Source: Psammoneis japonica (Eukaryota). Taken from it: a stretch of 64,000 nt of DNA. The notes under the pieces are model-generated. The model saw only the letters and a list, made by a program, of their open reading frames with translations. It was not told where the DNA came from and ran no database searches. Location: contig QPGO01000035.1 of assembly GCA_008632985.1 (NCBI GenBank), positions 49,899-113,898 on the forward strand, given 5' to 3'. Within the stretch, counting starts at the first letter, position 1. Every line of letters starts with the position of its first letter. Shown piece by piece: positions 14,401 through 43,260 of this stretch. A program made the translations under genes and the position numbers.

Positions 14401-17287
14401 GAGCAGTAGAGGGCGCAGTAGATGGTGTCGTGGATGGCGTATCGCTTGGTTGAGACGACGGTACCGTTGATGGCACACTACTGGGAGCTCCACTCGGGGC
14501 AGCTGATGGGGTTGTTGACGGTACAGTAGAGGGTGATTCGCTTGGCTGAGCGGAAGGACCGGTCGACGGAACTTCACTGGGAGCAAAACTTGGAACTGCT
14601 GATGGTTTTGTTGAGGGCGCTGAGGACGGTGCAAGGGAAGGTGCATCACTTGGCTTAGTGGATGGAGTCTTCGAAGGCATGTTGCTGGGTGCAGAACTTG
14701 GGACAGCGGATGGGCCAATTGAAGGCATATCGGAAGGTGACAAGCTGGGAACGTCGCTGGGTTCGGTTGATGGATTTGTTGAAGGTACATTACTTGGGAC
14801 CGAACTTGGAATTGAAGAAGGTGTTGTTGAGGGCGCACTACTTGGAGCTGCACTTGGTGCTGCGGATGGGTTTGTTGAAGGCATGTCACTAGGAGTAAAA
14901 CTCGGCACCTCAGAAGGTGCAGTCGATGGAACTGTTGATGGCCTCGAGGACGGCACATCACTTGGTAGAGTGGATGGACTAGTCGACGGCATGTTGCTGG
15001 GTGCAGCTGATGGGAGTGTCGATGGAACTGTAGACGGTGTAAGAGAAGGTGCGTTGCTCGGTAGATCGGATGGACTAGTTGACGGGGTGTCACTGGGAGC
15101 AGAGCTTGGAACTGCTGATGGGTTTGTCGAAGGGATCGTAGACGGTGGCACAGAAGGTACATCACTTGGTTGAGTGGATGGACTAGTCGACGGCGCATTA
15201 CTGGGTGCAGAACTTGGGGCACTCGAAGGGGCTTCGCTAGGCTCATAGCTAGGCTCAAAAGACGGAGCGGCCGATGGCATGTCGCTAGGTGTTTTACTCG
15301 GAGCTGTCGAAGGAGGGGCTGAGGGTGCTGCGGAAGGCATCAAAGATGGCGCACTGCTAGGCTGGGATGATGGAACTGCTGAAGGCGTGGTGCTTGGAGT
15401 TGCACTAGGAACCGCAGATGGAGTCATGGAGGGTGCAGCTGAAGGTGCAAGCGACGGAACAGCGCTGGGGCTTGATGATGGCGTTGTAGATGGTAGGTCA
15501 CTAGGAGCTGCACTTGGGACTGTAGATGGAGTTGCAGACGGAACACCAGAAGGCATGATAGACGGGACATCACTAGGTTGGGTCGAAGGCGTTGTCGAAG
15601 GAATGTCACTTGGAGCCGCACTGGGGATTCCAGAGGGAGTAGTTGAGGGTACCGCGGAAGGTTTCAAGGATGGGATATGGCTGGGTTCCGAGGATGGACT
15701 TGTTGAAGGTATGTCACTGGGAGCAGAACTCGGAACAGTCGAAGGTATAGTAGATGGCATGTTGCTCGGCTCAGCTGACGGTTCTGCTGACGGCGCGACA
15801 CTTGGAGCTGCACTTGGCACCGCCGATGGTTCTGTTGAGGGAGCAGCGGATGGTTTCAGGGACGGTGCACTGCTTGGTTGAGCTGAAGGGGCGGTCGACG
15901 GCACAAGACTTGGAGCGGCCGATGGACTGGACGAGGGCGCAGAACTTGGCATGTCGCTCGGAGCTACCGAGGGTGAGTCGCTGGGGGTGTCACTTGGGGC
16001 CGTAGTGATGGGAACGGGTTTCCAGATAAAGAGAAATGGTTGGTTTTCTCCTTCGCCTGTGTTTATTCCAAGTTTGTTCTCGCCTCCCCAATGCGTTCCA
16101 TTCCATTGGCGGAAGTCGACTTCAGCACTACTGTCTTGGACAGCCAGCATTATGTTGTCACTCTCTGGATCTGAATAAAGCATCATGGAATTCGAGTCCT
16201 CTACGATATAGGGACCTGGTTTCTTTGATGACCAGGATGTGTCGCCGGGTTGCCATGTTCTGTATATCACGGCTGTTTTCGTGGTTTCGTGGTACGTCGC
16301 CATAGCATGACCGGTAGTGCCCTCAAACGCTACAGCAATGCCCTTGAAGCTATTGCTTGCAGTGAAAGTACCAATTTCTTCGACAGCCTCCCAATTGCTA
16401 ATGCCATCCCAAATTGCTACCCAATGGTGCTTACCCTCCGTAGTGACTCCCACCGCAATTCGATCACTTGATGGATCTGAATTGATGGCAACATATCTAG
16501 GAACGCTAGAAACTGGCGATGTAACAGAGCCTGATCCAATCCAGTCTGTGCCATTCCATATATTATACTGTAAGTCGTTTACGGTGGAATCCCGATATAC
16601 CACCATTGCTCTCCCAGTTTGTTGCTCATACGCAACGTTTACATTTGATACATTGCTGTTGCCGGCATTTTGCAAGTCTTTGCCATTGCCCCATTCTGTT
16701 CCGTTCCACACCATTGCGTAGTCATTAGCACCATCAACACCAACAACAAGGACCATTTCATTGGACTTTGGGCTTGCTTCCAACTGCAGTTCGTTGTGAT
16801 TGCCAGTCGTGATTGGTTGGTCCGTGATCGTTTTTTCGTTGCTCCAGGTTTGGGAATCACCAGCAAAAGTTCTAAATTTCACCGTGCTCGAATTAGCAAC
16901 TGTCCACATCATCAATGCGTTGTCACTTATCCGTTCATATCTGACGTCAAAGCTCCACCAAGTCGGCTGTGTCGCCAAGTTGAGCGAAAAACTTGTAAAA
17001 TCCCAGTTGCTTCCATTGAAAACTTGGGCGGTAACGGAGTTGTCTTTTTGGACTCCCATGACAATGAGCTCGTCGCGTTTGGCAGAGTAGGCACCCTGAA
17101 TGATTCGCCAGCTACTGCTTTGTGAAGAGTCCATGTTGCTCACCGGAGTATCAAAACTGCTTCCGTTCCAGAAAGAATATTGCGTGGGAGCGGAATCACT
17201 TTTCTGAGACCAAATGGCAATTCCCTCAGTTTGTCCGGATGCCGGAATAATAAGCACAATTGCAACTAGGGCTAATGTCAACCACAT
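2456..17287 (-). CDS. Giant secreted Pro/Ser-rich mucin/adhesin-like protein (~4,940 aa once two homopolymer frameshifts are bridged)
   Basis: Three ORFs (9569..17287, 5703..9713, 2456..5668) join across a missing G near 9721 and an extra G in the G7 run at 5771-5777. Order of parts: signal peptide MWLTLALVAIVLIIPASG; ~400-aa Trp-rich domain with WNG.W repeats; ~3.6k aa of PSxx tetrapeptides; ~6 DUF11/DUF7507-like repeats (Y.VTNTGNV.LSN...GD.N.NG.LD.GETW.Y); a GC.P..W...ALGRQAVAALLNAA domain; an Arg-rich tail. Confidence 0.85.
2520..2632 (-). repeat. 33-bp coding tandem repeat x3 (RRPTPRNNSYS)
   Basis: gcgtggagttggacgccgggagtaggagttatt repeated at the 3' end of the giant gene. Confidence 0.85.
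5830..15240 (-). repeat. Coding tandem repeat, 1152-bp (384-aa) unit, ~8 near-identical copies
   Basis: Equivalent antisense ORFs start at 5959, 7111, 8263, 9415, 10566, 11718, 12870 and 14022 (spacing 1152, once 1151). Confidence 0.95.
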
Positions 17288-17799
17288 CTTGACATTCGTC
17301 GTTCTTTGTTGCCGCTTCGTTGTTTCATGTTTCGTAGAGTAGAGTATTTTACTTTTGTGTGTTGGTGTTTGTGTGTGATTACTTTTATTTTTTTGCGAAT
17401 GAATACAAATACCGTAGGTAGAGTACAGGCAGTATGTAGTAGTACAGTAAATGACTGATCAATGACCTTCCACCCAAAATTTAGTCAAGTGGCATAAATC
17501 TGCTTAGATTGAAATGACCACAATGCCAGCAAAAGTGAGTGTGTTTCGCTCGTGCGTGTGTACGTACAGTACGGTACTGCAGTAATTTCTCGGACGTTTT
17601 TGTTGCCTGTTTTGTCGAAGACAAGATCTAAAAATGTCAATTATTGGATCCAACAATTTTTTTTTCACTTTTTTTTTCACGTTGTGAAAACCAGCAAAAA
17701 CATACACTGGGGATCTTGCGAAGATGACCCGTGCGTAAAACGCACAGATTACTTTTGGACGTCCGTGGAAATCTTCTCCCACGGGTTTTTGTACAAGAA

Positions 17800-20700
17800 C
17801 TGTTCTTTTCTCACAATTTGTGCAAAAAAGGACTTTGCTGTTGTATGATCTGGTGCATTGTTGCAGACATGTGGAACAAAAATGCACCTGATTGGGCAAA
17901 ACAGTCAAGTTCTTTGTTTTTCACAAAGATGGAATTCACTCACACAGACAGATGAACACACAATTTCACAATTTTCTGCACACTGGCACTCGCAGCTTCA
18001 GTGTGACAACTCTTCAGAACAAAGAAAGATTGTTCCACTGAAGTGACAACCCTGATGGCTCAGCCAGAGAACCACCAAAGACCAAAGCCCCCCACTGGCA
18101 CAAGCTTGGCTCAGGTGCTTTTTTGTTGGCGCCCCAGAAAAGAGGACATGTGCAGGCTCGCCACATGGGGTGGCCTCAGCCACCAGACACCTGGCTCTTG
18201 GCACCAAAGCACATGAAAAAACAGCATGTGGCTCCATCACCACCACTTGTTTGTCAAGCACAAACAACCACTGAGTTGCTGAGACATGAGACAAATGTGA
18301 TCTTTGAGCACCTTGTTCACGCAGCTGCTTTGGCTTGACGGTTGCTTTTCCCATGTGCTGGCCCAGATGTGCTCAACTTGGCATCTTGTGGTGGGGAAGT
18401 CACAACCCAGCATGTTGTCATGAGGTTGTTGCAAATGAAAAGATCGTTGGCAGCCTGGCCAAAGCGACGCATGAGTGGTTGGATGGGGGCAGCTGCAAAT
18501 TCCAGCACTCAATGCAGAAATCTGCTGCCAGAGTTGGGAGGTGCCTCCATGAGCTTGTGGTCATGGTGGGAGGTCAAGACAATGTTGGATCACTTCATTT
18601 CAAGAGCACACGCCACAAAACTTCTTGCACTTTTTGAAAGCTCGCACATTGTTGTCACTCGTTGGTGATCACAGCCTCACAGACACAGACATCTTGGTCA
18701 ATCCATCTCACATGGGTGCACCACAATCAGGGAAGGGGGGGTTGGACAAAGATGCCACACAAGAGGTCCCAACTGCTCAGGTCTCTTTTGCCTGCTCACA
18801 TGTCATCATTGCTGGCCTGTGCAAGAGAAAAAGTGCCCAGTCTCTCAGCAGGATTAAAAGAAGCCAGCAACAAAAAAGAAACAAAGTTTTCTCTGGAGTC
18901 ACCAAGCTTTGTTAAGAACAATGCAGCTTGGCTCAAAACATCATTTGCAGTGTCAACAGAGCCACAAGTTTTTGATTTGCCAAACAACTGCACAACCAAT
19001 GAAATGTCTTTTTAGTGCAAATGTGCAAACAAGGGCCCTCACTTAAAAAGGTCCATCATGACCTGAGCTGCCAGAAATCCATGCATTGTGGAAAAAACAT
19101 GAGCACTGAGTGAAACATGGCTGCCAACCACTTGGATGCAAGCAACACAACAGAGCAAATGCAAAAAAGCTCCAGGTCATCAGGCTCCAGCTGAAGATGG
19201 CATGGATGCACCACTCCACACACACTCTTGCCAAGGCTTCAAAAAACAGCAAAACAAGCCATCTGCAGCAACTCTCTGTCTTGCTGCTGATGCCATTGGC
19301 ATGATTCATCATGTTAAATGGTGTGGTGTGCTCTGTCCCCAATGTTGCAGAAGATCTTCTTTCTCAGGGGGCTCCAAGGAGGAGGACTTTCCTGTGAGCT
19401 GGTTTGTGTGCAAGAATGAGAAAATTCCATGCCCAGCTCCTGCCCTGATTTTGATTTTGCATCTGCTTGACTTGCACCCATCTTGGTTTCATGCTGGCTC
19501 CAACAAGATGATGGGTGGAGACAGGAAACCCTTTCCTCTTCAAGTGCAGCATTTTGTTTCAGAGCCAGCTCTGGATTGTGCATCCTTCTTGTGGCCCTGG
19601 ATGGAATGTGTTCCAAGATTGAAGGTGTGACAACTTGCTGCACCATCCAATGGGAAACAAGTGCACTCAGCATTTGTTTCATTGATGGGTGGCAAGCACA
19701 GACAGCAAGATGAAAGGCCACTTGCACCAACTCCAACTTTTGATGTGAGTGGCACTGCTGATTGGGCAATGTCTGTAAACTCCAACTTTGTCATCCTGCA
19801 GACATGAAGTGTGCCAACAGCAACCCATCATTTCATTTGACCTTGCCAACAACCTGTGATGCACTGACCACTCCATTGAAAAGCACAGCAATGTCTGTGA
19901 CACACCCACCTTTTTGCATCAACAACAAGGGTGCAGCTTGTTTGATGGGGAAGAGCACAGCAATTTTTTGCAGTTGGTTGTTGATGCTGGTGTGCAACAA
20001 CCCTGTGGTGTCAGCATTTGAGGACCAGGTGAGCTGCTGTGGATCAACAAGATGACAAAACCAAAAGAGATCATGTTTGTGGCACCACACATGAGAGTCA
20101 GATCTTGCCAAGAATGTGCTGGTGACAATGCATGCAGCATGCCAGAGAAGTTCAGTTGGTTGGTTGTCATGTGCACTCCACATCAAACCGTGCTTTTGAC
20201 CAAATGAAAATTGCAGAGATGGGGAAGATTGGATGAGTGGTGCTGCAGTTGCACCAACCCATGAAGCAAAGACCCCAGCACCCATGACATGAAGCAATTT
20301 GCCCAATGTCCAAATGTGATGCCTTGTGTTCTCACTGCTCTGTTGTCTGCTTTGAAAAAGAAGAATGCTGGAAGCAAATTTTTTGGCATGGACATCACAC
20401 GTCAGCTTGGCCTTTGACACTGAACCAACCAAAATTTTTGCATGCTGCAGGCTGCTGCTCACATTGATCATCATTGCATGGAAACTGAAGAATTGGAAGA
20501 CTGCTGTGTGCAACACAGCGACAAATGTGTTGAGCATTTTTTGGAAACACCAGCTCCAGCTGTGCCCTCATTGATGCTCTCTGCCTTGTTGGAGTTTGTG
20601 AGAGCAACATGGGAACAAAAGAGCATCATCTCTGAACCAACAGCATGACAGCTGATGAGCATGCCAAGATTCTGCATGCCTCCCCACCTCTCTGAATTGT

Positions 20701-23700
20701 GGCCACCTTTTGACCACAATGACAAGCTGTCAAGAAAAGCCAGCACTGGACATCCTGCACATGAGAGCATCACAGAGCTGGTGCCAGACAATGGAGAGTG
20801 GAATTTTTGGCTTGTCCAAAAGAACTTGAACATTTGAGAGAGGAGCTCAAACCCAGGAAGGTGCCCACCTGCATGTCACAACCTCACAGCCTTCTTTTTT
20901 TGTTTTCTTTTTGATCAATCTGGAAGCACTTTTTGTTGATGTCCATGCTGTGCACACAACCTTGTCTCATCATTTGCAATGAGAGCTGATGAGCCCAACC
21001 CAAAGTGGGTCATGGCCTGTCCATTGTGGGGTTGTGGCTGTTGCTGAAGGGGTTGTGGCCAATGTGCTGAGGTGCTGTGACCATTGTGTTTTGAGTTCAT
21101 GCCCAAAGTGCAGAAAAAAGACACAATTTAAAAAAAAAACAACTCTGGCAGATGTTTGTGCAGCAAGTGCTGGCTGCAAAAAAAAACTGCACTCAACTCA
21201 TTTCAGTGCAACACCAGCTCTAGAAAACTCATGCATGAGAAAATCTAAGTTGCTGCAGAACAAGCATTTGAATTTGCAGGAAGTGGCAGTCTTGATGTGA
21301 CAGCCAGAGGACCAGCCACCAGCGCCAGCTGTGCCATCACCACCCATTTCCACATCACCTGCTGATTCCCACCAAACCACTTTGGACCAGTTTTGCCAAC
21401 AGTTTTTGGCTGTTGCAGATGCCACCAAATCTGCAGTCAGACCTGACTCAAAAATTCTGTTGTCCCCAAGCACAGGATCTTTGAACATTTCAAAAACAAA
21501 CACTGCTTGTTGGGGGTGGCTGCTCAAAAAGAAGAGCACATGACAACCATTGTTCTCTCAACAAAGCAGCATGTAAATGCAGGTGCATTGTCTGCATTGT
21601 CACTCCAGCCTGCAGTGTGCATTGCCTCAAGCTGGGGCCAAGATGGAGGATGGGAAGTGGGGTGCCAAATGTGAAGCCAGCCAAGCATCTTTCTGTGCAT
21701 GATGGGCTGATGTCCTCTGTTTTCAATGCCGGCTCCCAGCTTGCTGTTCTGCCCTTCAACCAGCCCCTGCACCCTGCTTGTGTGACCTGCTTTTAACCTC
21801 ACTCTCCGTGCCTGTTCTGCATGGTGCCCCTCTGGTGGGTGACATGATGCACGAGCTGCTTGTGTGCACTTTCCAGACAGTGAGCAACCTGCAAGAGTGC
21901 TGCAAGCTGCACTTGCTTCTCTCCTTGCTGCCTTTGCTGCCTTTCTTTCTCTCTTCTCTCTTGCTGCTGCAGCTCCCCCCTTCTTCTGGTGGCACCGCCC
22001 CCTGTTTCTGGCCCTGGAGAGAATTTCTGTCTTTTCAACTCCATTGTGCAGTGTGGAACATTGTCCAGAAGAGTGCACACAGAAAAATGTGTGTGCCTGG
22101 CATGCGGTGCATGACAAAAGAATGCACATGCCACATGACAAAGTGCAACACATGCCACAACCCAACAGCTCAAGGTTGAGGTCCCACCCAGAGCTGGAGC
22201 TCATTGGGCTGGCACACTGGCAAACTGGGGCATGCTGCACACTTGACTTTCCCTGCACAGAAGTGTTGGACTCTTGGGCTCTGCCCACCCACCAAGAGTC
22301 TGATTCTTCAGTGTGCTGGGTGTTGTTTTTTCTCAGTGATCATTTGTTTGGAGAAGCAGCTGGAGCCAGAACAACCTGGACACACAACATGGTTGGCATC
22401 ATTTTTTCACTCCAGAGCCATTGAGCCCCACATGATTTCTGTGTGTTTTTCACTGCATGAGCAGGAGTTGGTTTGACTGCAACTTCCAGCACAGAACCAG
22501 TTCCACAGGAGAAATGCACCTCAGTGTTGAACTGTCCCGCCATGGCTGTTGATTTCTTTGATCTTGGAGAAGTGTCTTTCACAACTTGCACGGCATGACA
22601 GGAGCGCAAAACATTCCTTGGAAATGAAAGGGATGCTTTCCATTGTTTGCATTCATGTGACAATTGATCTTTGGTCACATCTTGATGCACTTGGGATGGG
22701 AATGCAGCAACATCCTTTGCACAGTGAGACTGAAACAGCATTTCATTGCCTTGTTTTTTGAAACCACAGTGGCAGAAATGTCACCTGCTGGAGTGTTTCT
22801 TGTGCAGTGGTCTCAGACTGACAGGATGCAAACTGTGAGTTTCCTTTGGGATGTGATGTGCACGCAATTGTTGCAACAATCATTGCAGTTGCAAGCCTCA
22901 TTGGGAACCACATGTCAGTCACAACCTGATGGCTGTTCTTTCCACTGCATGCATTCTTGTGCACTGAAAGACTCTTCTTGGCACTGTCCAAGCAGCAAGG
23001 TTGCATCTCCTTCCTCCACAACAAGCACAACAGCCATTGCAGCTCAGTTCACCAATGAACATGTTGTCTGCATGGTTGTTGCCATCATTTCTAGCAGTGT
23101 GATTCCTTGCTGCAGCAAGACTTTGTCCTGATGACACAGGTTCCTGCATCTGCAGTGTGAATGAAGCAACTCTCTTTTCCCTGGCAAGAACAATCTGCAT
23201 CAGCTTTCCAATGTCCTCTCCTTTGTTCTCTGCTTGGGTGTGTGGAAACAGCACAAATTGCCAATGCAAGCTTTGTTGCCAAGCACAAAAGAGCTGGCTG
23301 AAACTGCAGCTGCAGTTTTTGACATGAGAGGCACTTCCATCACCACCACAACTGCAGGGCTGGTCACCAATGCAGCTTGAGCACCCTGCCCTGAGGTCAC
23401 TGCACAGCTCATGACAAGCATTTTTTGCTCTGACACAGGATCCATCTCTCTCAAAAAGTGTGCCCCCCACTGCCACACAGCAACTTTCTATTCCAGTGCA
23501 AGAGACATCTCTGTGCACCTTTGTGTGCTCATTTGTCTGGTTCACCTTTTGAACATGCTCCGTTGCCATTGCAGCTGTTGTCACCAACATTGATGTCCGC
23601 GGTGGTGCATCTTTCACCATTGCCTTTGCATGAGGCAAACAACCTGGCTGCAAGGTTTGAGCCAGTGCAAACTGGTGTTTGTCCTTGGCAGATGCTCAAG

Positions 23701-26700
23701 CTGTAAAATCAGGTGAGAAACTGGAGCTCAGGGCACGAGATTTGCACTGACTGCTGCTTCTTCCAAGGAGATGACTGCTGGCCTTACAAACAGCTGAACA
23801 ACCACTGTCAGGGGGTTGTTGTTCTTGATGCACTCCTTCATCTGAGACCAAGGTGCACGGGCAAAAAGCAACATGCCATGGCCAGCGTGGGGACACAAAA
23901 AGAGATCCCTCCCTGTGACACCCAAAACCAGGCTCTTTCTTCCCAAGCATGCATCTCATCAGCATTCATGGAATGTGAGAGAAGCTTCCTGGAGAAAACA
24001 AACAAGAGCAACTCTTGCCTTCACAACAATGGAAAAAAAAATGTGAAACAATTTTGACTGGCACAAGCCCAATGGACTTGTGAATGGCTGCACTGCACTG
24101 CAGCACCCATGACTTGCAAGTGTGGTGTCAGGGGAACCCCACACACGGAACTCAAAGTGTGCGACTCAATGTTTCACAAAGGGGCAACACATCCATGCAC
24201 AAAGATGCAGGCAAAGTTTAAACTTTTTACACAAAATGTTCATTGTCATGTGTTTTTGAAAGTTGATTTTGACATCATGTGGGTGGACAAAAGGAAAAGA
24301 GAAAAATGAGAGGGAAAATGGCTGTGGGTGCTCACACAAAAATCTCAATGGGAGAAGGGTGCCTCTTCATCACCCAACTCACTGCTGGTGAACTCAGTCT
24401 TGGTTTGGCTGTCATTTGGTCAAAGACAGCAGAGCAAAGTGTGCAAGTTGTTTGCTCCTTCTTTTGGGCATGTGCTGAAGCACCTCCTGCGGTCACTGCC
24501 ACTGCTCTGTTGAACCATCTTTTGCCCCTTACAACATTTTGTCACTTGCACATTGTCCCTTGCACCCTTTCCCTCTCTTCTTTTTACCCAGTGCACCCCT
24601 GCGCCTTTGCAAGCAGCTTGGCACCATGAGTTGCTGCTGAGATGAGAGTGGAGATGAGCACAGCCAGCAAAAGCAAGCTTTTGACAACATTGTCACAAGC
24701 ACTGGCATGGCAAGCCAGTGCTTTGTGGAACAAAGTTCTGTTCTGCAACTCACAAGCTTGCTCATTTCAAGAGTGTGCAAAGATCACAAGGTCTTGAAGG
24801 GTCACCACAGATGACCCCCTGGGGTTTTCCAGATCTGCCTGCATTGGCAAGACATGCTGAGCCTGCAACTTTGCATTCTTGGGATCTGTGCCTGCCAATC
24901 ATTGGCTCTCTGCTGCTTTGCCATTGTTTGTGCACTTGATGGACATCCTCTCCTTTCTGGGAGGTGTGGCAGCTTGACCACTTTTTCTGGAGGTGTGCCA
25001 AGAACAGGTCCGTGCCCCCCCCCCCCCCCCCAAAAAAAAAGCCAAAATCAATGCTGTTGCACTGAGCATCTCATGCAAAGTCCAGCTCCTCACAAAGCTG
25101 CTGCAATGACAAGATGCTGCCTCTCAGCTGCAAAACAGAGTGGCACACTGCTGCCTGCTCAACCATGAGAGTCTGTCCTGAGGTTTTAAGTGGAAGAGGG
25201 GGGGGGGAGCAGCAACAAACTGTTGAGAACAACACTTGGTGGAGTTGTCTGTGCACAAGTTGTGTGGACATGAAGCAAGACATTTGACCAGTGAAAACAC
25301 TCAAATTTCTCATCTCCAAGGAAGAAAAACTTTGGCCACCTAAATTGACCTTGGGGTTGTTCTCCAATGTGCACCAATGCACCCAGCAAAATGTTTTTCT
25401 CAGAACTTTCCTCCATCAGCCATGGCAGAGCCAGTGGCCCTGGTGGCACACACAGAATGTTTGCTCCAACAACCTGGGACACACCAGACAGCATTGTCAG
25501 GCAAGCTTTGGCTTGTCAGATTTGATGTTGCCTGGGTTGCAGTTTGCCTTTTCTTGCTGGTTGACTCCCCCCAGCAGAGATTAGAGTCTGGTTGTGCAGC
25601 CTGTCACAGAAGCAAGTGCCGGCACTGTTGGCTCCTTGAGGAGCCTGCCATTTGCCTTTCCTTTGGAAGAGAGATTTGATGTTTGCCCTCCCTGGCTGCC
25701 ATCCCCACCACCTGCACCAGCACCATGACACATTCATGCAAGAAAAGTGGCCCTCTGTTGTCTGTTTGGTGATGGCTTCCAAACCAAAATGGCAGCACTG
25801 TCTAGCTTGCAACTGTCTGGAGTTCAGTTGGACATTGAAACTTTGCAGGTGTGCACACTGCAGTGTCTTGCACATGCTGACAAATCAACAGCTGATGGTT
25901 GAAGGAGGAGACAGTGTCATCAGCCACCAGCCCACTGTCATCATCAGATGGAAAAGTCTCTCTCAGCTCATTTGTGTCAACACCTTTGTTTCACTTGGGG
26001 GACTGCCTCAACAAAATTCACCATCTGTTTTGGTGGGAAAATGATCACTTGTGGGGCCCACCAAAAATTGGTCTGTTGAAAAGACACCAAAGACTCAATG
26101 TTCACATTGTGATGAGATTGTTGGACCAACTGGAGGATGGTTGAGCCCACATGGAAGGCTGAGCATGTTGAGCAGGCTTCTGATGGAGCCAGCAGTGTGG
26201 ACTGAAAGCTGACTTGCCTGATGGCTCCCCACAGCAGACAAGTGAAGTGTGCTCTGAAGTGGAGCCTGACAGACAGGGATGGACCAGCAAATTGCAGAAG
26301 TGGTGCTGTGAGAGGCCAAAGGAGCAGAGACAGATGATCCCACCATGAAGGAGGTGCAACCACTGACACACCAAGCCTCTGCCATCTCTCACTTTGTCAT
26401 CACTGGCACTGGCCACTGCTTTGCTGGTGCTGGCTTCAGTTCCACCATGAGCAGGGGGGCACCCAACAGGGCATCCTGAATCTCAGTGTCAGTCAACAAA
26501 GGCTGTCACAGCAGTTCCTCTGCAAGCTTGTCTGCCTTTGGGGAGCACTGCTGAAGAAACAGCATGTTGGCAGAGGAGGCCAGGAAATGACTCAGGACAA
26601 GCACTTTGGCACCTGAAGCCTCTTCTCACTGATGAGACAATGATGCCAAAAATTGACACAGCTGCAAAGAGGTCACTGACCTGGGCAGCAGCATGGAAGA

Positions 26701-29700
26701 AAAGGGCCCTCAAATGCCTTTTCCTTGCAAAGCCAAAAATTTGTCATGGAGCTTGGGCATGAGCTTTGAGAGGGTGCAGTCCCTGTGCAGCTCATGTGAG
26801 ATCCCAGTCAAGGCCAGGGCAGAGACTGCCGGTTGCTGAGAGCAATCTCAAGTTCTGCTGCAAGATGATCACAAGGGGTGAGGTTGACTGCAAAGTCATC
26901 AGGGGAAGCAGATGTGTGGTTGAGAATGACTCCTTCAGATGGAGTGTGTCTGTTCCCATGCATCTGGCAGAAGCATGGCACCAGAGCTGACACCATCAAG
27001 AGCAATGCAGAACTTGTCAAAAGAGGTGTTGGGGGGCCACACCAGGCCAAGAGGAAGATCAAAGCATGGGGGCAGCAGGAAATCCTGGGGAGCAGTGCAG
27101 CATCACATGGAGGTGGCCTGTGCTGTGCACCAGGGTGGTTTTGCAACCCACTGCTTGATGCCATGGGACCTGCTTGGAGCCCAAAAGGACAACAAAGTCA
27201 GAGCCAAAACGGTGGCAAATCAGCAAATGGCACTGAACTTGGTGCTGCCACCCACAAGGCAAGATGGTGCTGACTGCAAAATGACCAAGCATTGAGTCCC
27301 TGACAAAACAGTCCCAAGGTCATGGGCTCCAATTCTTTTGCCAGAGCATCCTGAGCAAAAGACGCCACCGCAAACGGAAAAAGGGCAGATCAGGTGCTGG
27401 CACACCATGTGAGGCCAAGGCCACTGGCAGATGACTGTGACTTTGACAGAGAGACACCACAGCATCTCCTCATGCCACAACACTGGGGCCACTGACTGCA
27501 GAGTTGTCACAGGGTCAGAAAACAAAGGGGTCTCACCACCCAACAGCAACAGGACACAACAAAGTGGGTGCATGGCAGCACGCCACCAGAGGTGGAGGTG
27601 CTGTGGCTGCTGGCACAAGCACTGGGGGCACTGCAAAACATTGTGCCATCTGCTGCCACAGCCTGCACCCCACATGTGCTGAGACAATGGTGGTCAGACC
27701 ACTGGCATCCATGGCTGAGCTGCAAGCAACAGCAATGTCATCAGATGCCAATGCTGGCATGAAATCACCACAGCAGGAGACCAGAACAGCACCCCAGGAT
27801 GGAGCCAGTGCTGCTCATTGGGATGGCCAGAATGCTGATTGCCAGAAAGAAGGCACCAGATCCACAATGGAGAAAACAAACTGTGCCCAAAAAGAGACAC
27901 CAATGGCAGCACAGCAGCCGCTGCTGCCACCATGCTGGAGCATCCCCCCCACTGTGACTTGACATGGACATCAGAATGAAAGAGGAGAGGGCTCACAGAA
28001 CAAGAAAAAGTCACTCTCTGCTCATCAACATTTCATGCAACATTGTTGATGAAAAGAAAAAGCAAGGTTGCCATGGCTCATTCTGGTGCCTCACATTGCA
28101 TGCCGCTGCTTTTATGACAGCTCAACTGATGCACAAGCAGCCCACACACAGATGACCAGCACTCTCTCCCATTGGCCTCTAATCTGTGCTACATCAGCAT
28201 GGAATTTGTTCCTGGAAAAGATCTTTTCTTGCAAACTTCTTCTTTCACACAAGTGAAAAAAAGGCTCTTTGGGGGGTTGGTCAAACTTTGTCCATTTGCA
28301 AGACACTCTGCCAGGCAGAGTGCTTGCAGATGATGACTGCAGCAGATCATGGGGTCACAGCAAGTCAAAAGCTGGTTGTTGGCATTTCCTGGAAAGTTGC
28401 AGCTTGTCTCCCACAACAGCACCAACCCCAGCAGAAATTGGCAGTTTTGCCCACCCAAAGACTTGCCAAAGGTTGACAAGTGGCATTTGAAGCATCAAAT
28501 GTGCAGCTCTCATGGGGCCAGATGAACCCACCAGTGTTTGGGGGTGATTCAAGGCACATCAAAATGACACAAAGTGTGGGAAATGCGATCCATCCTTAAA
28601 AAGTTGCTGTGCCTTTAAGCATGTGCAGCATCAGAGAATGTCTGACCACTTTGCCCAAGGAACACACCACTCTGCAAGAAATTGGTCAAGACCACTGAGT
28701 GGAGTTCTTCACTTGCAGCTGTGAGTTGAGCCCAAACTTCAGCTTTCATGAAAAGCTGGTTGAGTCCAAGGTTTCTTTTCTCTGCAGTCAAGAAGCACAC
28801 CCTTCTTGGTGTGGTGAGTGTGTTGGTCTCTGGCTTGACCTTGTCCAACTTTGAGTGTGCCCAGATGGTAAACTCAGAGCAGACACAGTGCAAAAACAAT
28901 CACTGTTGCATCAGGCATTTAGAAATGACACATGCAGTGAAGAAAAGCACCCCACTCACAGTCCAGCACCTCATTGCAGGGTGCAAGCCAAGCCAGTGCA
29001 GTCACAAGAATGCACAAAGCAAAGCAAGTGACAAGCAAGGATAAAAAGAGAAGCCAGCTGTGAACATTTTTGCACAACAAGCCTTTTCAACAGCTTCAAG
29101 TGGAAAGTTGAGACACTGTCAACTGAGTTCAGTGCTGCAGGTTTGGCATCAACATTGTCATGACTCCTCCTTCCTTTGTGAACAAGAAGAGAACAGCAAA
29201 ACCTCAACTCCCCACCCCAACACCAATTTGCAGCCACTGGACAAGAGGTTCTTTGATTTCTTGCTGCTGCACAAAGCAATCTGGAAAGCACAATGGACAT
29301 TTCCAATCTTGCAGACCATGTGTTGTGGAGCATTGGATGAAGCCTGCCAGACAAATGGAGTGCAACCAAGTCAGGTCCATGGAGAACAGATGACATGCAA
29401 TTTGCTGCAAGCAACATGCCAGCACATTGGCAAAGCATGTGGTTCTCAAGGCCATTGTGTGCAAGACATCAGCTTTGCCATCACATGGTCAACTTGTGCA
29501 TTGGCTGTCATGTTGCGGTGCACAAACCACATGGTTTGGTCCTCCAAGAGCAGCCATCATGAAGTCAGCAATGGACATGTTGCCATCAGCATCTGTGCAG
29601 AACTCACAAAGCACATTTGAGCCCATTTCAGCACACCAACAAAAATGCCAGCTTCAGCCAAACATCCTCAAAGATGTCACATTGCATGAACTCAACAATG

Positions 29701-31100
29701 CCTCCACCAGATTGGCCTGTGCCAAAGCCAGAGCATGGATGGCAGCTCAGGTGGCCTGCCAACAGGTCTCTCACAATCTTTTGTGCTTTGGCACATTGAC
29801 TCTTTTTCAGCTCTGGAAAAAACACACACCTCAGAAACCACCACCAAATGCACAACAGAGCTCTTTCACTTTGTGAGACTCTGAAGCTGGGTGCCTCGCA
29901 ATTCTTCGTTGGGTGCTGCTCCCAGCTCAGGAATGGGCTCCCTTCCACTTGGGAAGATGTGCGGCACTGCCACCCAGACCTGTTTGGTCTGCATTCTCAA
30001 AAGTTGATCCACCCCAATGTCTTTAATCTGGAGATGCAACAATCATGGTGTGTGCAGCCAATCAACCAGACAGCTTGTTTTTGGGTCACAAGGCAGGGGA
30101 GCCTCAGCTGGCAATGTTTTTTCAGGCAGCATCTCTGTCTCAGCCTGTCCTTTCTCTGACAAGGAAAATTGAGTGTGATGACCACCGTTGCCATCAGCCA
30201 TGTGAAGAACATGTGCTGCAGTCTTGCCCTTCTGCAGAAGAAGCCTGGTTGTTGCAGAGAAGCAGCGCACAGCAGCAGAGTTGCTGGTGCCTGGTGCATG
30301 CCAACAACATTGCCTGGTTCCAAAAAAAACAATAAAACCACCCTAAAAACCAATCACATTTTGAGCAGAACCCATGTGTGGGTTGGGGGGCTGCACATCA
30401 TGTCCTTGATTTCATCATGCTCCAACTCAATGGTGATTTGGACATTGGCAAAAATTCCTTGAATCAATGGCACTGCAAATGGAGCAACCACAGTGTGAGA
30501 GGTGTGCTCTGAATTCTTGCCCTGCAGCAAAGCTTGCCATTCTGTGGACTCGTGTGACAAGTGCAAGAGACCTCACAAGATTTTGTGTGGTGCTTGCAAT
30601 GACGACAATCACTGGGAGTCTCAATGAAGACTTCATCAGTGTTTGCATTTCCACCACTGCAAACCCAAACCGAGCAGACAAAACCTTTTTCTCTTCGACA
30701 ATGCTCCCTGCAAGCACACCTTGGCAGCCTTTGTGGAGATTTGCACTTCAGGATGTAACCCAAGCTCCAATTTGGCTGTCAAGAACCCGATTGAGTCCGG
30801 AAAAGTGTCAAAGGTGAGTTTTGGCAGAGTTCTGTGATGTGATGGTGCTCGCACCTCAGTGGCGTTCAACAAAATGTTCCAAACGTTTTGCTCATTTAAG
30901 CAAACAAAACTTAGATTCTGGGAGCATGCATTGTTGCTCATTTTGGCTGCCAACAAAGAGACTGCATCCTTTCATTTGCCCTCCTTCAGATTGTGAGAAC
31001 TGCAGTTGGCGTGACACGCAGAACCGCAGCAGTGTGTGGTCGTTGAACAAGAGCCATGGTTGCGATCGGATCACGAGCTGACTTCCAAGTCAACACCGTA
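17800..31100. other. Highly degenerate repeat/transposon field depleted of both TpA and CpG and enriched in TG/CA
   Basis: TA and CG are very rare over ~13 kb. The many overlapping Cys/His/Gln-rich ORFs almost lack Tyr. Individual elements could not be identified by eye. Confidence 0.75.
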
Positions 31101-31297: not shown

Positions 31298-31528
31298 CGA
31301 ATAAATCTCGATGCAACGAAAGAACAAGCACGATGCCTTAAGTCTAAATAGAAAGCAGCAACACTGTCAATGCGAACCTAAACCTGATTAGATTGTGAGC
31401 GTGTCGCTGCAGCACCACTCGATCCACACATCTCAACCAATCACCAATTGCAACATGGCCCTCCATCCAGATTTACTCGGTCCCCGCGAAACGGCAATGA
31501 CAATGCCGATTCGTCCAAACATGTAACA
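31298..31528 (-). repeat. 3' LTR of the copia element
   Basis: Starts with TG just after the PPT on the minus strand; 31298-31479 matches the other LTR with 9 substitutions. Confidence 0.85.
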
Positions 31529-31643
31529 TCCTCTCACAGAGAGGCAAACCACAAGAACCCAAATTAAACCACCAGATGTGCTGGCTTGGGAGGCCACGAT
31601 ACGTGGGCGCGAGCCACAGGTGCCTGGCCTTGGTGTCGGGACA

Positions 31644-33368
31644 TCACCAAAAAACACACGAGCAAAGCTTCCATCGCCGCTCTCCTGCAACCACCTTCGT
31701 AAGTAGATCGGCCAAGTTCGTTTCCGCATCCTCCTTGCCAACACGAACAATTCCCGCTGCGACCGCTTCTCGCACAACATGGCAGTTGATGGCATTGTGC
31801 TTCTTGTGCAAAACCGACTCGGGTGCACTTACATTCTTTACAACACCGCGATTGTCACAAAAGATGCTTGCCGGTCCTTCAAGGGGAACCCCAAACATGC
31901 GAAGCTTGTGACGCAAAGCAACAATCAATTCCTTACAAATCCGCATCGCAACCAATTCACTCCCAAACGTTGCCGATTCCACCGTGTTCTGCCGCTTGCT
32001 GAACCACACCACTGGCGCGTTGTTGACGAATGTCAGAATCCCGCCATGCGACCTGCGAGTGACAACATTCCCTGCATGGTTAGCATCAACAAATGCACAG
32101 ATGTTTGCCGGATTACCACGAGGCTTCGGTGCCCGTGGCGGCAGTTCCTCCTCGACGTCCCCGTAAAACTCGGTCCAGTCTGCGTTCAAATTGAAAATAG
32201 ATTCATCAATCACCGGTTCCTTTGGATCAAATCCGATGCATCCGACGTTCTGGTGTTTCTTCATGTGCGCAAATGCATGACACAATGCCTCAAGATGTCC
32301 TTTCCTCGGATTAGCTTGACATTGAGATGGGATTGAAACCTCATGCAAGACATCGATGCGACCCAACTCGATCGCCCAACGACAAATCCCCATCAGCTGC
32401 AAACACCTGTCCACCAAGTCGGGGCCTAACTCGTCCGTCACGTCCAGCTCCGGTTTGCATTTCGGGGGCAGTGGATCCTTTGCACTGTTCTTCAGAACCT
32501 CTCCATTGCTGTCTTCATCCAATGGGCCTTCCACAGTCTTGATCGTCGATTTGACACATGACCTCGGTGAACTCGCCCAGATTGTGCGCCCATCCTGAGT
32601 CTGAACCTTCTCAACGTTAGCTCCAAGATGAACTTCTGGTTCTCCTTCGCTGCCGGGCTTCACGGCACAGTGTTCACCTGTTGCAGTGACAATGGACTTC
32701 CCTTGATGGGAAATGATTGGTGTGTCATCGACATGAACCAAAAGCATTTCACAATGCTCGCGCCCATCCTCACGAGTCGCCGCACGCAAGTGGACATCTG
32801 GGTCCACTCTCGTCGATGCGAAGCCCAAGTCACGTAAGACCGATGACAGTGCAGACCTCCAAGAGCATCCCGAGCTCTTTAAGCCATGTGATGCCCGAGT
32901 GACAACAAGTGCCTTTCCTTCGCACTCGCCGCATTCCTTTCCACCTTCAAACCACATCTTTTCTGCGCACGGTGCATTGAGGTGAGCATTCTCCAGATCA
33001 ATCACCGTAATGTCGATGCCATTCAAGGCTGCCAACAAGAATCCAAGTCGCACACTGTCTCTGGAAACCACGCCAGAGCAAGTGATCGATGCCGGGGCCT
33101 CTGTCGTGTGTCCGCCAGCTGCAAACCTTGCCTTTCTGGTGAAATCCATTTTAATGTCGAATGCCATGTGGCACCTGATCTCCTGATGACCGCGCAAAGT
33201 TGCGCTCTTGCCTTCCCGGACGACTTGAGGGGTTTCAGCTTCGTGCTCGCGCCATGCCACCTTCACCTTTGCCATCTCCTTGTTGATTGCACGAGCCCAA
33301 CAATCTGTCCCCGTTTCCTGATCAATCTGCAAAGCGTCCTCCGTGGACTTGGGCAATCGGACCCCCAA
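31644..33368 (-). pseudogene. Copia reverse transcriptase / RNase H region
   Basis: FDIKMDFTRKARF.AGGH, VVSRDSVR, NA(Y>H)LNAP, (Y>H)GLKSSG, V(Y>H)VDD, FVDANHAG, WFSKRQNTVES.TFGSE, NLADLLTK. Only one Tyr in 574 aa. Confidence 0.9.
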
Positions 33369-35334: not shown

Positions 35335-35870
35335 CTGTCAACAGCACAACCGGCAAGTTCTGCACTTCCCAATCCGTCGGAACACGAGACTTGAAAGACA
35401 CAATTGTCCCCGTGGTGTTGAAAGGGATGAAAGCTTCGTCAGCTTCAATGCCAAATCCGTTTCGGGTGTCGCAAGGGTTGTCATGTGCGGGCATGTTGCA
35501 CGCACGGAGTTGGTTAGGATTCAAAAGTGAGTGTTCCATGTCGGTCCCAAACCAGAGCATTTGATCACCAACCAGCAAATGTTCACGAGTCGTTTCCGGA
35601 TCTGTCCATGCGGTGCAACAACGTGCCACAGGAATCTGTTTGATCGGCTCACAAGAGTCCAGAAATGGATGTACCTCGCACACTTCATTTGTCATCTCCA
35701 TGAGCTTCCAGTTCGCCCCAGCGCAACAAGTGTCCGCGTGAGTGTCACATTCATTTCGAGCGACAAACCCAGGTGTCGTCAAATTTGTCATCTGTGCAGA
35801 ACTCGTCGATCGGATCACACGTTTTGATGTCACGGCAATGTGCCTCTTTGTCGCCTTTCCTTTGAAACGA
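35285..35870 (-). pseudogene. Copia aspartic protease region
   Basis: RNECDTHADTCCAGAN motif (diatom copia ELDSHADTCC-type) and SLLNPNQLR. Confidence 0.75.
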
Positions 35871-35974
35871 GACATTGGGTGGGGTTCAGTCAACAGCAAG
35901 AAGAGCAACACAAGCAAAAACGACAAGTGTGCCAAATGCGCCAATGCTCCAGCAGCTGTTGCCACCCCAAGGAG

Positions 35975-37565: not shown

Positions 37566-37979
37566 AGCTGTGAGTCTGCATGGTCATGATGGCGCACTTT
37601 CTCTGTGTTGTGATGACGGGTTCACACAGCCACCCGACGTCAGGGTGATCAGTCCTGTGTCGTTCATGTCAACCGACATCATTGAGCACACGCTCGGGCA
37701 TGTCGCCCAATGCCGCAGTCCCTTCACACCCGTTGCACATGTGAGGATAGTGACTGTCTTTGCGAGTGTTACCATTGCAAGCTGTTTTTGTGGATGTTAT
37801 AATGAGCGACACGAGACGCATCATCGTGCGCATCAATCCGAATTCTGATGCATCGCGCACAGTTCAGCACCGTTTCTACAGCTGCACGTTCCATGCAAAC
37901 AACACAACAAACAATCGTCCATGACGAATTGTATTCGAAACCATTTCGCTCTGTCTTTTTCGTCTTGGCTCTGACAAAG

Positions 37980-38161
37980 CGAATAAATCTCGATGCAACG
38001 AAAGAACAAGCACGATACCTTAAGTCTAAATAGAAAGTAGTAACACTGTCAATGCGAACCTAAACCTGATTAGATTGTGAGCGTGTCGCTGCAGCACCAC
38101 TCGATCCATATATCTTAACCAATCACCAATTATAACATAGCCCTCCATCCAGATTTACTCG
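37980..38161 (-). repeat. 5' LTR of the copia element (lacks ~49 bp present at the start of the 3' LTR)
   Basis: Ungapped match to 31298-31479. Confidence 0.85.
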
Positions 38162-43010: not shown

Positions 43011-43260
43011 AACCTCGGCTCTTGATACGGTCGAAGTCAAAGAAGAACCGAACAACTCGGCTCCTGATACGGTCAAAGTCAAAGAAGAAGAGCAATTTTA
43101 AGACGTAGAATCGCAAGAGTAGCCCTAGTAACAGAATGATGACATTGATCCTCTGTCAGTACTACTCACGCTTCAGTGCTCCTTTGGAGCATCACCATTA
43201 TGTTTTCACGCTTCCGTTAGTGACACTCTACTAGCGTAACGGATCTCCAACCGTTCAATC

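Follow-up and report, generated by a model that had tools for sequence, protein, structure and literature searches.

The window, by which we mean the whole 64-kb stretch of DNA that was analyzed, contains two long blocks in which the dinucleotides TA and CG are nearly gone, lying among genes and copia retrotransposon sequences. At its left end there is the reverse-transcriptase end of one copia copy (1-1653, forward strand; RVT_2, 1.2e-35), which is only partly TA-depleted. A giant open frame on the reverse strand (5700-17,458) consists of 1,152-bp tandem units with a mutual identity of 95-100%. The first block, block A, occupies positions 17,793-31,098, the last part of it (30,550-31,098) being a distinct edge zone. 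Further to the right there are a second copia element on the reverse strand (31,298-38,161) and block B (44,672-54,655), which is absent from the earlier note on this DNA. For a flanking gene, all of the best named relatives belong to raphid pennate diatoms, so the host is a diatom. The palindrome at 40.56-43.03 kb was considered as a candidate for converted DNA and rejected, being an ordinary inverted duplication of ~75% identity with normal TA and CG, whose arms differ by 168 transitions and 126 transversions.

Composition, borders and content of block A

The core of block A (17,850-31,098; 13,249 bp) has 37 TA and 68 CG dinucleotides, as compared to ~525 and ~754 expected from the frequencies in the flanks (39.6 TA and 56.9 CG per kb); the Poisson log10 P of these deficits is -170 for TA and -228 for CG. 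In 1-kb bins between 18 and 31 kb the observed/expected (o/e) ratios are 0.00-0.10 for TA, 0.00-0.20 for CG and 1.64-2.39 for TG and CA, while in the flanks they are 0.5-0.7 for TA and 0.8-1.25 for CG. Hence the near-absence of both dinucleotides, noticed earlier, is confirmed by counts. The TA density is 2.8 per kb, TG and CA are increased by the missing amount, and 97% of pyrimidine-purine steps in the block are TG or CA. According to the dinucleotide counts, other dinucleotides, ApA and ApT among them, are not erased (ApA: 85 per kb, compared to 64-83 in the flanks). The block is complex sequence and not a satellite, with few tandem repeats and a zlib ratio of 0.288 (0.318 for shuffled sequence).

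The sum of the four dinucleotides TA, CG, TG and CA per kb is the same everywhere, being 240.1 in block A, 245.9 in block B, 253.0 in the copia element and 237.2-248.4 in the flanks, and thus only the split among them has changed. This agrees with the proposal of the earlier note that TA and CG both feed TG/CA.

Both blocks have sharp borders (17.8, 31.1, 44.67 and 54.66 kb, each to tens of bases), and the adjoining genes are normal. On the left side of block A the last dense TA is at 17,792 (with one more at 17,844) and the last dense CG at 17,782. On the right side TA is back at 31,099, so the coordinates given earlier are correct to ~50 bp, while CG is back between ~30,550 and 31,010. In the edge zone TA is therefore already absent and CG is partly kept: CG is present from 30,551 to 31,097, while TA occurs only at 30,756, 30,897 and 30,912, and the 500-bp bin at 30,501 has o/e 0.08 for TA and 0.33 for CG. 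The tandem-unit frame, which ends 340 bp from block A, has 29 TA and 51 CG per kb, both of them normal. As these near-identical units are spared, the change is not induced by repeats.

The loss of TAA and TAG stops had been thought to explain a mass of spurious Cys/His-rich open reading frames (ORFs). The effect exists in kind, though its size is modest: there are 26.0 stops per 1000 codons in block A, compared to 36-39 in the flanks, and 41-44 six-frame ORFs of at least 100 aa per 10 kb, compared to 20-32. Cys makes up 6.6% (3.4-3.8% in the flanks), His 5.4% (3.5-4.0%) and Tyr 0.1% (2.3-2.5%), and annotators should beware of such Cys/His-rich, Tyr-free phantom ORFs.

No recognizable gene or transposon domain was found in block A by Pfam, tblastn and self-comparison. 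In particular, the 115 ORFs of at least 70 aa gave only a chance-level match to zf-CCCH_3 in Pfam at E<=0.01, and 70 ORFs gave no transposon family at E<=1, but these blanks say little, because Pfam finds nothing in block B either, in spite of the copia relic there. The best block A score in the purine/pyrimidine self-comparison of the window is 45 (46-54 for shuffles), and tblastn with the copia ORFs of the window and with 120 public copia polyproteins gave nothing in the block at E<=0.01. A homology search after in-silico reversion, suggested earlier as a way to identify the buried elements, did not succeed: with ungapped alignment, where TG or CA may count as descended from TA or CG, forward queries score 75-91 and reversed queries 69-88, and even on known copia the procedure increased noise and signal alike. 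In the independent read set block A is single-copy at 90% likeness except for ~28.0-28.6 kb, where a short stretch repeated in the genome (27,973-28,639) has a summed contig depth of 402, as opposed to ~60, and holds contig loose ends at 28,413 and 28,510. We read block A as silent intergenic DNA that most likely consists of old mobile elements decayed beyond recognition; since no gene, domain or repeat family is recognizable in it, the mobile-element origin is suggested by its neighbours.

Direction, order and context of the changes

The element at 31,298-38,161 is of the Ty1/copia type, having two direct 182-bp LTRs (95% identical) around a copia-type reverse transcriptase (31,647-33,377; RVT_2, 1.2e-9; tblastn to public copia polyproteins, 3e-20); neither a target-site duplication nor canonical TG..CA ends could be made out in the LTR alignment. 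As the earlier note had claimed, this element has lost TA and kept CG (o/e 0.09-0.20 and 0.81-1.02, respectively). Its interior (31,480-37,979, reverse strand) has 7.4 TA and 63.7 CG per kb and a broken frame, and TA is kept in the last ~230 bp beside the 5' LTR. The family is high-copy, with a summed contig depth of ~1,460-2,360 over 31.3-37.3 kb (~60 in block A), and its copies differ mainly by transitions (190 of 207 among the places listed).

The 5' LTR (37,980-38,161, reverse strand) keeps all 16 TA sites, while the 3' LTR (31,298-31,479, reverse strand) has lost 9 of 16 to TG or CA (p = 0.004), with all nine CG kept and no other changes in 182 bp. All nine differences between the LTRs are thus TA in the 5' LTR and TG or CA in the 3' LTR, that is, A>G or T>C transitions if the TA state is ancestral, and once recoded as purines and pyrimidines the two LTRs are 100% identical (184 columns). 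TA-type changes affect 9 of 32 TA site-copies, while none of the 18 CG site-copies has changed (p = 0.018). As the two LTRs of one insertion are of equal age and have lost nine and no TA, respectively, the loss proceeds in patches or tracts.

The direction was determined with the copia copy at 1-1653, compared to 120 public relatives. In the 13 columns where at least 70% of relatives have Tyr, this copy has six His, three Cys, two Tyr, one Trp and one Arg, while it retains residues conserved elsewhere (Arg 16/17, Lys 12/12, Asp 15/15, Phe 15/17). The Tyr content is 3.05% in relatives (median), 1.09% in this copy and 0.17% in the reverse-transcriptase ORF of the element at 31-38 kb. For block A, the direction is taken from the copia copies and block B. 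Environmental copia loci (best 80 of 272) have a median TA o/e of 0.59 and a minimum of 0.37, and none of these 80 is TA-depleted; this set is biased against mutated copies, both by the conserved Tyr in the search patterns and by the restriction to the best matches. Two of the 80, L046 and L074, have low CG and normal TA.

Block B represents the same end state. TA is lost from 44,672 and CG from ~45,010, and on the right both resume at 54,655-54,662, ~170 bp from the frame end of a PhoX-like gene. Buried in it is a gag-side relic of the same copia family (50,927-52,767, forward strand), in which both CG and TA are lost. The relic was not seen by ordinary blastn or Pfam; in the purine/pyrimidine code it is 77.7% identical to the younger element over 1,880 columns (score 464, compared to 46-54 in five shuffles), and tblastn with the copia ORFs of the window gives 2e-28 and 6e-23. 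The 128 CG sites of the younger element are aligned with 38 TG, 31 CA, 3 CG and 56 other dinucleotides of the relic. Moreover, there are 189 sites with TG or CA in both copies, and at 60 of them TG stands opposite CA, as expected if each copy converted shared ancestral sites independently. Block B also contains a nested element (47,055-48,559) with more CG than its surroundings and ~200-bp inverted repeats at its ends (47.05 and 48.56 kb), whose arms differ by nine TG/CA double changes.

The loss of TA precedes that of CG. In 500-bp dinucleotide bins, 14 of 128 are TA-low and CG-normal, and none is TA-normal and CG-low. The same order is seen within one family, where a young copy keeps CG and a relic has lost it (3 of 128 sites kept).

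Both strands are affected equally. There are 1,492 TG and 1,584 CA in block A, their order along the block being random (runs test z = -0.49), and the same holds for block B (z = -1.73) and the copia element (z = +0.84; 535 TG and 603 CA in the interior), so that no strand-coordinated TG/CA clusters were found by runs tests in any of the three.

Survival of TA relative to the flanks depends on the base 3' of A, being 0.245 for TAA, 0.090 for TAG, 0.053 for TAC and 0.015 for TAT (chi-square 120, p = 8e-26), where the flanks are a stand-in for the ancestral composition, and some of the remaining TA may be new and not survivors. The order of loss, TAT>TAC>TAG>TAA, is equal in block A and the copia element, while in block B TAC and TAG are swapped, and a resistant tail of TAA sites is left. 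In the same analysis the loss of CG shows no 3'-neighbour effect. Natural before-and-after pairs (LTRs, family members, haplotypes) allow one to read such specificity.

Recent change in block A can be seen from independently assembled public reads (run X1), whose contigs, at depth ~60, cover 17,307-31,073; two further runs, X2 and X3, gave no such contigs. In block A they are 99.6% identical to the assembly and have the same lack of TA and CG; the run may share its culture with the assembly, and the 0.38% of differences indicates that it is not the same consensus. There are 52 differing letters, and the 36 listed correspond to 33 events: 17 CG versus TG or CA, three TA versus TG, three TG/CA double changes, five other transitions and five transversions. 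Between 17,850 and 28,100, none of the 23 TA kept in the assembly differs, while of the 51 sites with CG in at least one lineage 17 do, these differences being unpolarized, so that some could be new CG from CA or TG. The background is ~0.1% (10 other changes in ~10.25 kb), and two new-TA differences are seen, with ~2 expected from background transitions. CG is thus the faster-moving class in the end state and is not slow in absolute terms.

Therefore, of the scheme with fast TA conversion and slower CG decay, the order stands, while the slowness of CG decay does not. The idea that the two form steady clocks, whose TA:CG depletion ratio could date insertions, is not supported, since TA loss is patchy, context-dependent and stalling, and CG loss is still fast; CG survival once TA is saturated can at best put ages in rank order.

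Mechanism and alternative explanations

The observations made here comprise composition, direction, order of the processes, strand symmetry, context preference and sparing of identical gene repeats. They very probably reflect in-place conversion of DNA by two context-specific transition processes, this estimate applying to the conversion and not to the enzyme. The first process would turn TpA into TpG or CpA, an A:T-to-G:C change acting equally on both strands and at each site independently of its neighbours, with preference for TAT, then TAC, then TAG, and TAA least. It would work in tracts whose ends lie no more than a few hundred bases from active genes, and in young insertions it would run far ahead of all other change. 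The second process would turn CpG into TpG or CpA, later than the first, and would be still running in block A; its simplest reading is the deamination of methylated cytosine. As the four affected dinucleotides are all pyrimidine-purine and only transitions occur, the number of such steps would be conserved and they would end as TG/CA, the common fixed point, where any new TA or CG made by background mutation would be converted again.

We infer that the first process is enzymatic and aimed at silent chromatin, and that the second depends on 5mC. Substrates of TadA/ADAT enzymes have the U-A context, and the TAY preference observed here fits it. A DNA adenine deaminase of this kind, as proposed by the authors of the Bigelowiella study discussed below, is a tentative candidate for the first enzyme, with the balance of probability slightly against it. 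Deamination of 5mC as the cause of CG loss is plausible by analogy with CG methylation of transposons described for the diatom Phaeodactylum (Hoguin et al. 2023, PMC9998398).

Alternatively, one chromatin-targeted machinery (for example, a deaminase or a methyltransferase-like enzyme) could remove both TpA and CpG, the loss of CpG then not being passive 5mC decay. The two depletions do share borders within ~10-60 bp at 17.8 kb and 54.66 kb, and the CG loss in block A is very fast, 17 of 51 sites being several hundred times the per-site background. Still, the two losses are separable, as fourteen 500-bp bins and the 6.5-kb copia have lost TA with CG intact, TA loss extends 350-550 bp beyond CG loss at two edges, and the strong 3'-neighbour preference belongs to TA loss only; hence we consider a single machinery unlikely.

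The A:T phase of antibody hypermutation is due to polymerase eta, with the WA motif. By a similar repair route, deaminated 5mC or other lesions might lead to error-prone resynthesis of patches with G placed opposite T at TA. Such collateral change would explain why TA and CG are erased in the same domains, and faithful repair of the CG lesion combined with a badly copied patch would give TA loss without CG loss. However, an error of the WA type would affect ApA, which is not depleted, while the conversion is nearly complete and strand-symmetric, and in hypermutable regions of Bigelowiella natans all but one mutation are at TpA, according to the preprint of Mettrop et al. (bioRxiv 10.64898/2026.01.13.699255). 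All this makes the repair explanation quite improbable.

Less probable again is ADAR-like A-to-I editing of retroelement transcripts, with subsequent reverse transcription and insertion of TA-poor copies, and for the bulk of the signal it is already contradicted. The copia family is indeed high-copy with copies differing mostly by transitions, and the same preprint (10.64898/2026.01.13.699255) notes that ADAR enzymes usually prefer a uridine 5' of the A that they edit. But RNA editing predicts sense-only change of TA to TG, while TG and CA in the copia interior are similarly frequent and randomly ordered; LTRs copied from one template should match, yet they differ at nine TA sites; and the inverted-repeat arms, as well as borders ignoring the limits of elements, point to change in place.

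Errors of base calling or assembly at modified bases (5mC, modified A or T) would also concentrate in silent transposon DNA, and the library types of the assembly and X1 are unrecorded. This reading is largely contradicted, and we give it hardly any weight, as the independent X1 contigs reproduce block A with the same TA and CG lack, the Tyr to His/Cys footprint and broken frames fit real mutation, and the same change arises as real new mutations in Illumina-sequenced lines of B. natans, as reported in the preprint.

Finally, a fungal-type RIP or another repeat-triggered C-to-T process, in whose favour one could cite the affected repeated elements and the transitions within the CA/TG/TA set, has a negligible probability, being already contradicted by the direction of change, since RIP makes TpA from CpA, while here TA is erased and conserved Tyr becomes His or Cys.

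Comparison with known systems

RIP of Neurospora and other ascomycetes is a C:G>T:A change at CpA that makes TpA and needs duplication, as described in PMC2621366 and PMC7296669. Compared with these descriptions, the changes considered here are likewise defence-like, context-specific transitions that wreck transposons, blur their recognition by BLAST and shift CA, TG and TA frequencies. Unlike RIP, they erase TA and do not make it, spare the near-identical 1,152-bp tandem repeats and affect mostly single-copy DNA. The resulting loss of recognizability accounts for the difficulty of annotating repeats in much of the intergenic DNA of diatoms; the copia relic of block B was found only by transition-blind alignment.

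The second process resembles 5mC decay of CpG in methylated transposons, as CG becomes TG or CA in silent repeats while adjoining genes keep it. In contrast to the usual decay, the depletion is far deeper (CG o/e 0.00-0.20), CG loss here always comes after TA loss, and it is apparently very fast, about 1/3 of the remaining CG sites differing, compared to ~0.1% elsewhere.

Hardly anything is known so far of targeted A:T-to-G:C mutators acting on nuclear DNA: our literature search found one 2026 preprint, on B. natans, and none for diatoms. In that chlorarachniophyte, Mettrop et al. (10.64898/2026.01.13.699255) describe A:T>G:C hypermutation, restricted to TpA, in giant-virus and virophage DNA integrated into the genome. 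Of 231 new mutations that accumulation lines acquired in two such viral regions, 230 were A>G or T>C, all at TpA; the rate was ~1000-fold the baseline of the genome, and the process was active in some of the lines only. As far as the preprint's account goes, both systems convert TpA into TpG or CpA only, act on both strands and are limited to separate tracts of foreign or silent DNA, the genome around them staying at baseline. Moreover, TpA-poor, TG/CA-rich 1-kb windows are reported to cluster in B. natans, and reverse-transcriptase and DDE domains to be enriched among its TpA-poor genes.

The differences concern the host, a stramenopile here and a rhizarian there, and the targets, which are LTR retrotransposons and unidentifiable intergenic DNA here and viral inserts in the preprint. 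The loss of TA here is near-complete (o/e 0.00-0.10), whereas the preprint gives 0.45 for the NCLDV region of B. natans. Near-total CpG loss is coupled to it in space here, while CpG is absent from the preprint's main text; nor does that text give a preference comparable to TAT>TAC>TAG>TAA, though its Table S2 may hold one.

On a broader reading, which we regard as speculative and rather doubtful, diatoms have a chromatin-guided defence by A-to-G editing of double-stranded DNA, TAY-specific, shared with the rhizarian alga and maybe old in SAR, with very fast CpG erasure possibly belonging to the same programme. If so, silenced DNA would be pushed to the TG/CA fixed point, and invaders would be permanently inactivated in a time in which far fewer than 1% of ordinary sites change. 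For base-editing work, too, a natural DNA adenine editor specific to TpA would be of interest. Set beside the B. natans case, the diatom one, complete over tens of kb, suggests that such a system is widespread within one major group of ocean primary producers.

Two blocks depleted in TA and CG

The stretch at 17.8-31.1 kb of the window (block A, 17,793-31,098) is a real and striking feature, and, as the earlier note had stated, both TA and CG are nearly absent from about 13 kb of it. In 1-kb bins at 18-31 kb, the observed/expected (o/e) ratio is 0.00-0.10 for TA and 0.00-0.20 for CG, compared to 0.47-0.70 (TA; adjoining 2-18 kb and 38-45 kb) and 0.75-1.10 (CG) in the adjoining DNA, with the ratio for TG and CA reaching 1.64-2.39. 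The 13,249 bases at 17,850-31,098 contain 37 TA and 68 CG, whereas the flank frequencies predict 525 and 754, respectively (Poisson log10 P of -170 for TA and -228 for CG). The block is complex sequence rather than a satellite. Its borders are sharp: the left one (last dense TA at 17,792, last dense CG at 17,782) lies about 340 bases past the end of the adjoining giant open frame; at the right border TA is back at 31,099.

A second stretch of the same kind (block B, 44,672-54,655), absent from the earlier list, ends about 170 bases from the frame of a PhoX-like gene. Between the two blocks there are a copia element (31,298-38,161, minus strand), which has lost TA and kept CG as had been described, and a normal stretch of 6.5 kb. 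Each block has one edge (44,672-45,010 and 30,550-31,098) where the loss of TA outreaches that of CG by 350-550 bp, and at the remaining edges (17.8 kb and 54.66 kb) the two borders coincide within tens of bases. The proposal that the loss of TAA and TAG explains spurious Cys/His-rich open frames is right in kind, though the effect is modest in size.

Every pyrimidine-purine step is one of TA, CG, TG and CA, and a transition can only turn one of these four into another. Per kb they add up to 240.1 (block A), 245.9 (block B) and 253.0 (copia interior), compared to 237.2-248.4 in three flanks, so that the sum is conserved and only its split is altered, TG and CA making up 97% of it in block A. 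The view that both losses feed TG/CA thus holds, and the blocks arose by conversion rather than being another kind of DNA. The G+C content stays at 0.49, since the loss of TA raises it and the loss of CG lowers it.

The host is, judging by sequence, a diatom: among named organisms, the PhoX-like gene (54.8-56.5 kb) has all its best relatives in raphid pennate diatoms (Nitzschia, Seminavis, Cylindrotheca, Mayamaea), with at most 56% identity. Its PhoX/DUF839-like frame (54,828-56,480, minus strand) has a fibronectin type II domain on the N-terminal side, and another host frame of the right flank (60,163-60,936, plus strand) has an HSF-type DNA-binding domain (7.6e-15). Measured between stops, the giant open frames are 2,629 and 1,352 aa long (5,700-17,458 on the minus strand, with 2,456-5,800). 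They consist of 1,152-bp units in tandem that share 95-100% identity, and the GC skew is strong (+0.35 to +0.37); they have PT-repeat matches, and DUF7507/DUF11 domains are found in the adjoining 1,114-aa frame. These repetitive frames probably represent a gene of a very large surface or wall protein. An inverted duplication lies at 40,560-43,030; its arms are about 1.2 kb long with about 75% identity, each containing a small frame with a weak winged-helix/Mrr_N-like match (40,560-41,072, minus strand; 42,197-42,955, plus strand).

Direction and order of the losses

The direction of change was set by four comparisons within the window. Both LTRs of one insertion are copied from a single template. 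The LTRs of the copia element (3' LTR, 31,298-31,479; 5' LTR, 37,980-38,161) differ in 9 of 182 positions, and in all nine cases the 5' LTR has TA, against three TG and six CA in the 3' LTR. Both LTRs retain all 9 CG, and in the purine/pyrimidine code the two are 100% identical (184 columns).

Another copia fragment (1-1653, plus strand) was aligned with 120 public relatives. In the 13 columns where at least 70% of the relatives have Tyr, it has His (6), Cys (3), Tyr (2), Trp (1) and Arg (1); other residues are mostly retained (Arg 16/17, Lys 12/12, Asp 15/15, Pro 15/15, Phe 15/17). The Tyr content is 3.05% in the relatives (median), 1.09% in this fragment and 0.17% in the reverse transcriptase frame of the 31-38 kb copia, and the TA o/e ratio of environmental copia loci (best 80 of 272) has a median of 0.59 and a minimum of 0.37. 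Taken together, the Tyr columns, the Tyr content and the environmental TA ratios show the TA-poor state to be derived. Low CG is combined with ordinary TA in two of these 80 metagenome loci, L046 (CG 0.11, TA 0.50) and L074 (0.32 and 0.49), which indicates that CG decay without TA erasure occurs in some other hosts.

Among the 128 bins of 500 bp, 61 are normal in both dinucleotides, 42 are low in both, 14 are TA-low/CG-normal, 8 are TA-intermediate/CG-normal, 2 are TA-low/CG-intermediate, and one border bin is CG-intermediate, while none is TA-normal/CG-low. The order suggested earlier, with TA going first and CG later, is borne out by these data (14 bins vs 0). The related idea of using the TA:CG depletion ratio as two clocks for dating insertions fails: the loss of TA behaves like a switch that is fast, patchy and dependent on context, and becomes saturated. 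After TA saturation, only the survival of CG could rank ages, assuming equal methylation; an example is the nested element at 47-48.5 kb, which is richer in CG than its surroundings.

Transition-blind alignment, that is, alignment in the purine/pyrimidine code, uncovered within block B a copia relic of the same family as the 31-38 kb copy (50,927-52,767), with 77.7% identity in this code over 1,880 columns and a score of 464 (46-54 in five shuffles). The relic is missed by ordinary blastn and by Pfam, and is confirmed by tblastn (2e-28, 6e-23). Opposite the 128 CG of the younger copy it has 38 TG, 31 CA, 3 CG and 56 other dinucleotides. The window demonstrates that otherwise invisible relics can be recovered in this way. 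TG opposite CA, a two-base difference, is expected if two copies independently convert the same ancestral TA or CG; it is observed at 60 of the 189 sites reading TG or CA in both copia copies, at 9 sites between the arms of the nested inverted-repeat element (47.05/48.56 kb), and at 3 sites when the window is compared with X1, an independent read set.

As for block A, no transposon domain or family was recovered by Pfam, no family by transition-blind self-comparison of the window, and nothing by tblastn with 120 copia polyproteins. The search after in-silico reversion, proposed in the earlier note as a way to name the buried elements, was run with a purpose-written reversion-aware procedure and likewise recovered no transposon domain or family. 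Near 28.3 kb, a segment of about 0.5 kb occurs repeatedly in the genome. The analogy of block B suggests that block A most likely originated as a transposon graveyard.

Behaviour of the TA and CG processes

TG and CA are nearly equal in number in block A (1,492/1,584), block B (1,097/1,150) and the copia element (535/603), and they follow one another in random order (runs z = -0.49, -1.73 and +0.84, respectively). Strand symmetry together with random order therefore excludes editing of a single RNA strand, and processive single-strand deamination is ruled out by the same near-equal counts in random order.

The survival of TA relative to the flanks depends on the base 3' of A (both strands considered), being 0.245 for TAA, 0.090 for TAG, 0.053 for TAC and 0.015 for TAT (chi-square 120, p = 8e-26). 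Of the 104 remaining TA, 9 have TAT on either strand, compared to 400 of 782 in the flanks. The order of contexts is identical in block A and the young copia, with TAC and TAG swapped in block B; the same analysis shows no 3'-neighbour effect for CG. The target of tRNA adenosine deaminases is A34, which follows the invariant U33, and a YAC context was preferred by early TadA-derived base editors; these preferences fit TA with a 3' pyrimidine and may serve as a lead.

The loss of TA is patchy: 9 of 16 TA are lost in one copia LTR and none in its twin (p = 0.004), and the 230 bases adjoining the spared 5' LTR likewise retain TA. Moreover, the process has no repeat trigger, as the near-identical tandem units of the open frame beside block A (1,152 bp, 95-100% identity) are spared, retaining 29 TA and 51 CG per kb, and the old inverted duplication at 40.6-43.0 kb, being normal in TA and CG, is not a target of the mutator.

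X1, a public sequencing run of the same organism, contains 87% of words sampled from 18,001-28,000, and its contigs (depth about 60) span 17,307-31,073 with 52 differing letters (99.6% identity), showing the same scarcity of TA and CG over block A. These differences show that X1 is another haplotype or strain and not the window's own consensus; the base composition of block A is very probably not an artefact. The copia family is high-copy in X1, with a summed contig depth of about 1,460-2,360 over 31.3-37.3 kb vs about 60 in block A. In total, 1,936 X1 contigs aligned to the window, most presumably on copia; by far the greater part of the differences are transitions (190 of 207 among the places listed).

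Classification of 36 of the 52 differing letters, all at or before 28,096, yielded 33 events. Seventeen are CG vs TG/CA (CG in the window in 9, in X1 in 8), two have TG in the window against TA in X1, and the reverse is seen once, at 17,751, just outside block A; the remaining ones are three TG/CA double changes, five other transitions and five transversions. At 17,850-28,100 the window has 43 CG and 23 TA. The lineages differ at 17 of 51 sites having CG in either, compared to 2 of 25 such TA sites (p = 0.023), at a background difference of about 0.1% of positions. The two TA differences equal the number that we estimate from background transitions at about 2,400 TG/CA sites, and none of the 23 TA of the window is changed in X1. 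Therefore, in the end state the conversion of TA has stalled, having run out of usable substrate, while the loss of CG is ongoing, at a per-site rate several hundred times the background, although no polarity can be assigned to these differences. At three of the four places in the young copia where every X1 contig disagrees with the window, the contigs have CG and the window TG or CA, and thus CG decay has already begun there.

Comparison with known systems

The best reading of the feature is that, in silent diatom DNA, TpA hypermutation and then CpG erasure have led to this end state. Compared to fungal RIP (repeat-induced point mutation), the diatom case is a mirror image, and neither of the two defining features of RIP is observed.

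The sole description of a TpA-specific A:T>G:C mutator found in our literature search is that of Mettrop et al. (bioRxiv 10.64898/2026.01.13.699255). According to the main text of this preprint, accumulation lines of Bigelowiella natans gained 231 new mutations in an integrated giant virus and a virophage, of which 230 were A>G or T>C, every one of these at TpA; the mutation rate was about 6e-7, with mutations in only some lines, and an ADAT2-like DNA adenine deaminase was proposed. That main text has no mention of diatoms or CpG, and no occurrence of "trinucleotide", "context" or "neighbo". The points newly added by the window are the strand symmetry and the TAY preference, the mass balance among TA, CG, TG and CA, and the evidence for a TA stall alongside fast CG decay.

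As far as the preprint's main text describes it, the B. natans system shares with the diatom blocks the TpA signature and tract-like targeting. The diatom case differs in the host lineage, in its targets, which are retrotransposons and anonymous silent DNA, and in the almost complete conversion, followed by CpG erasure. The feature is of a kind already known from one preprint, the diatom case being a further member.
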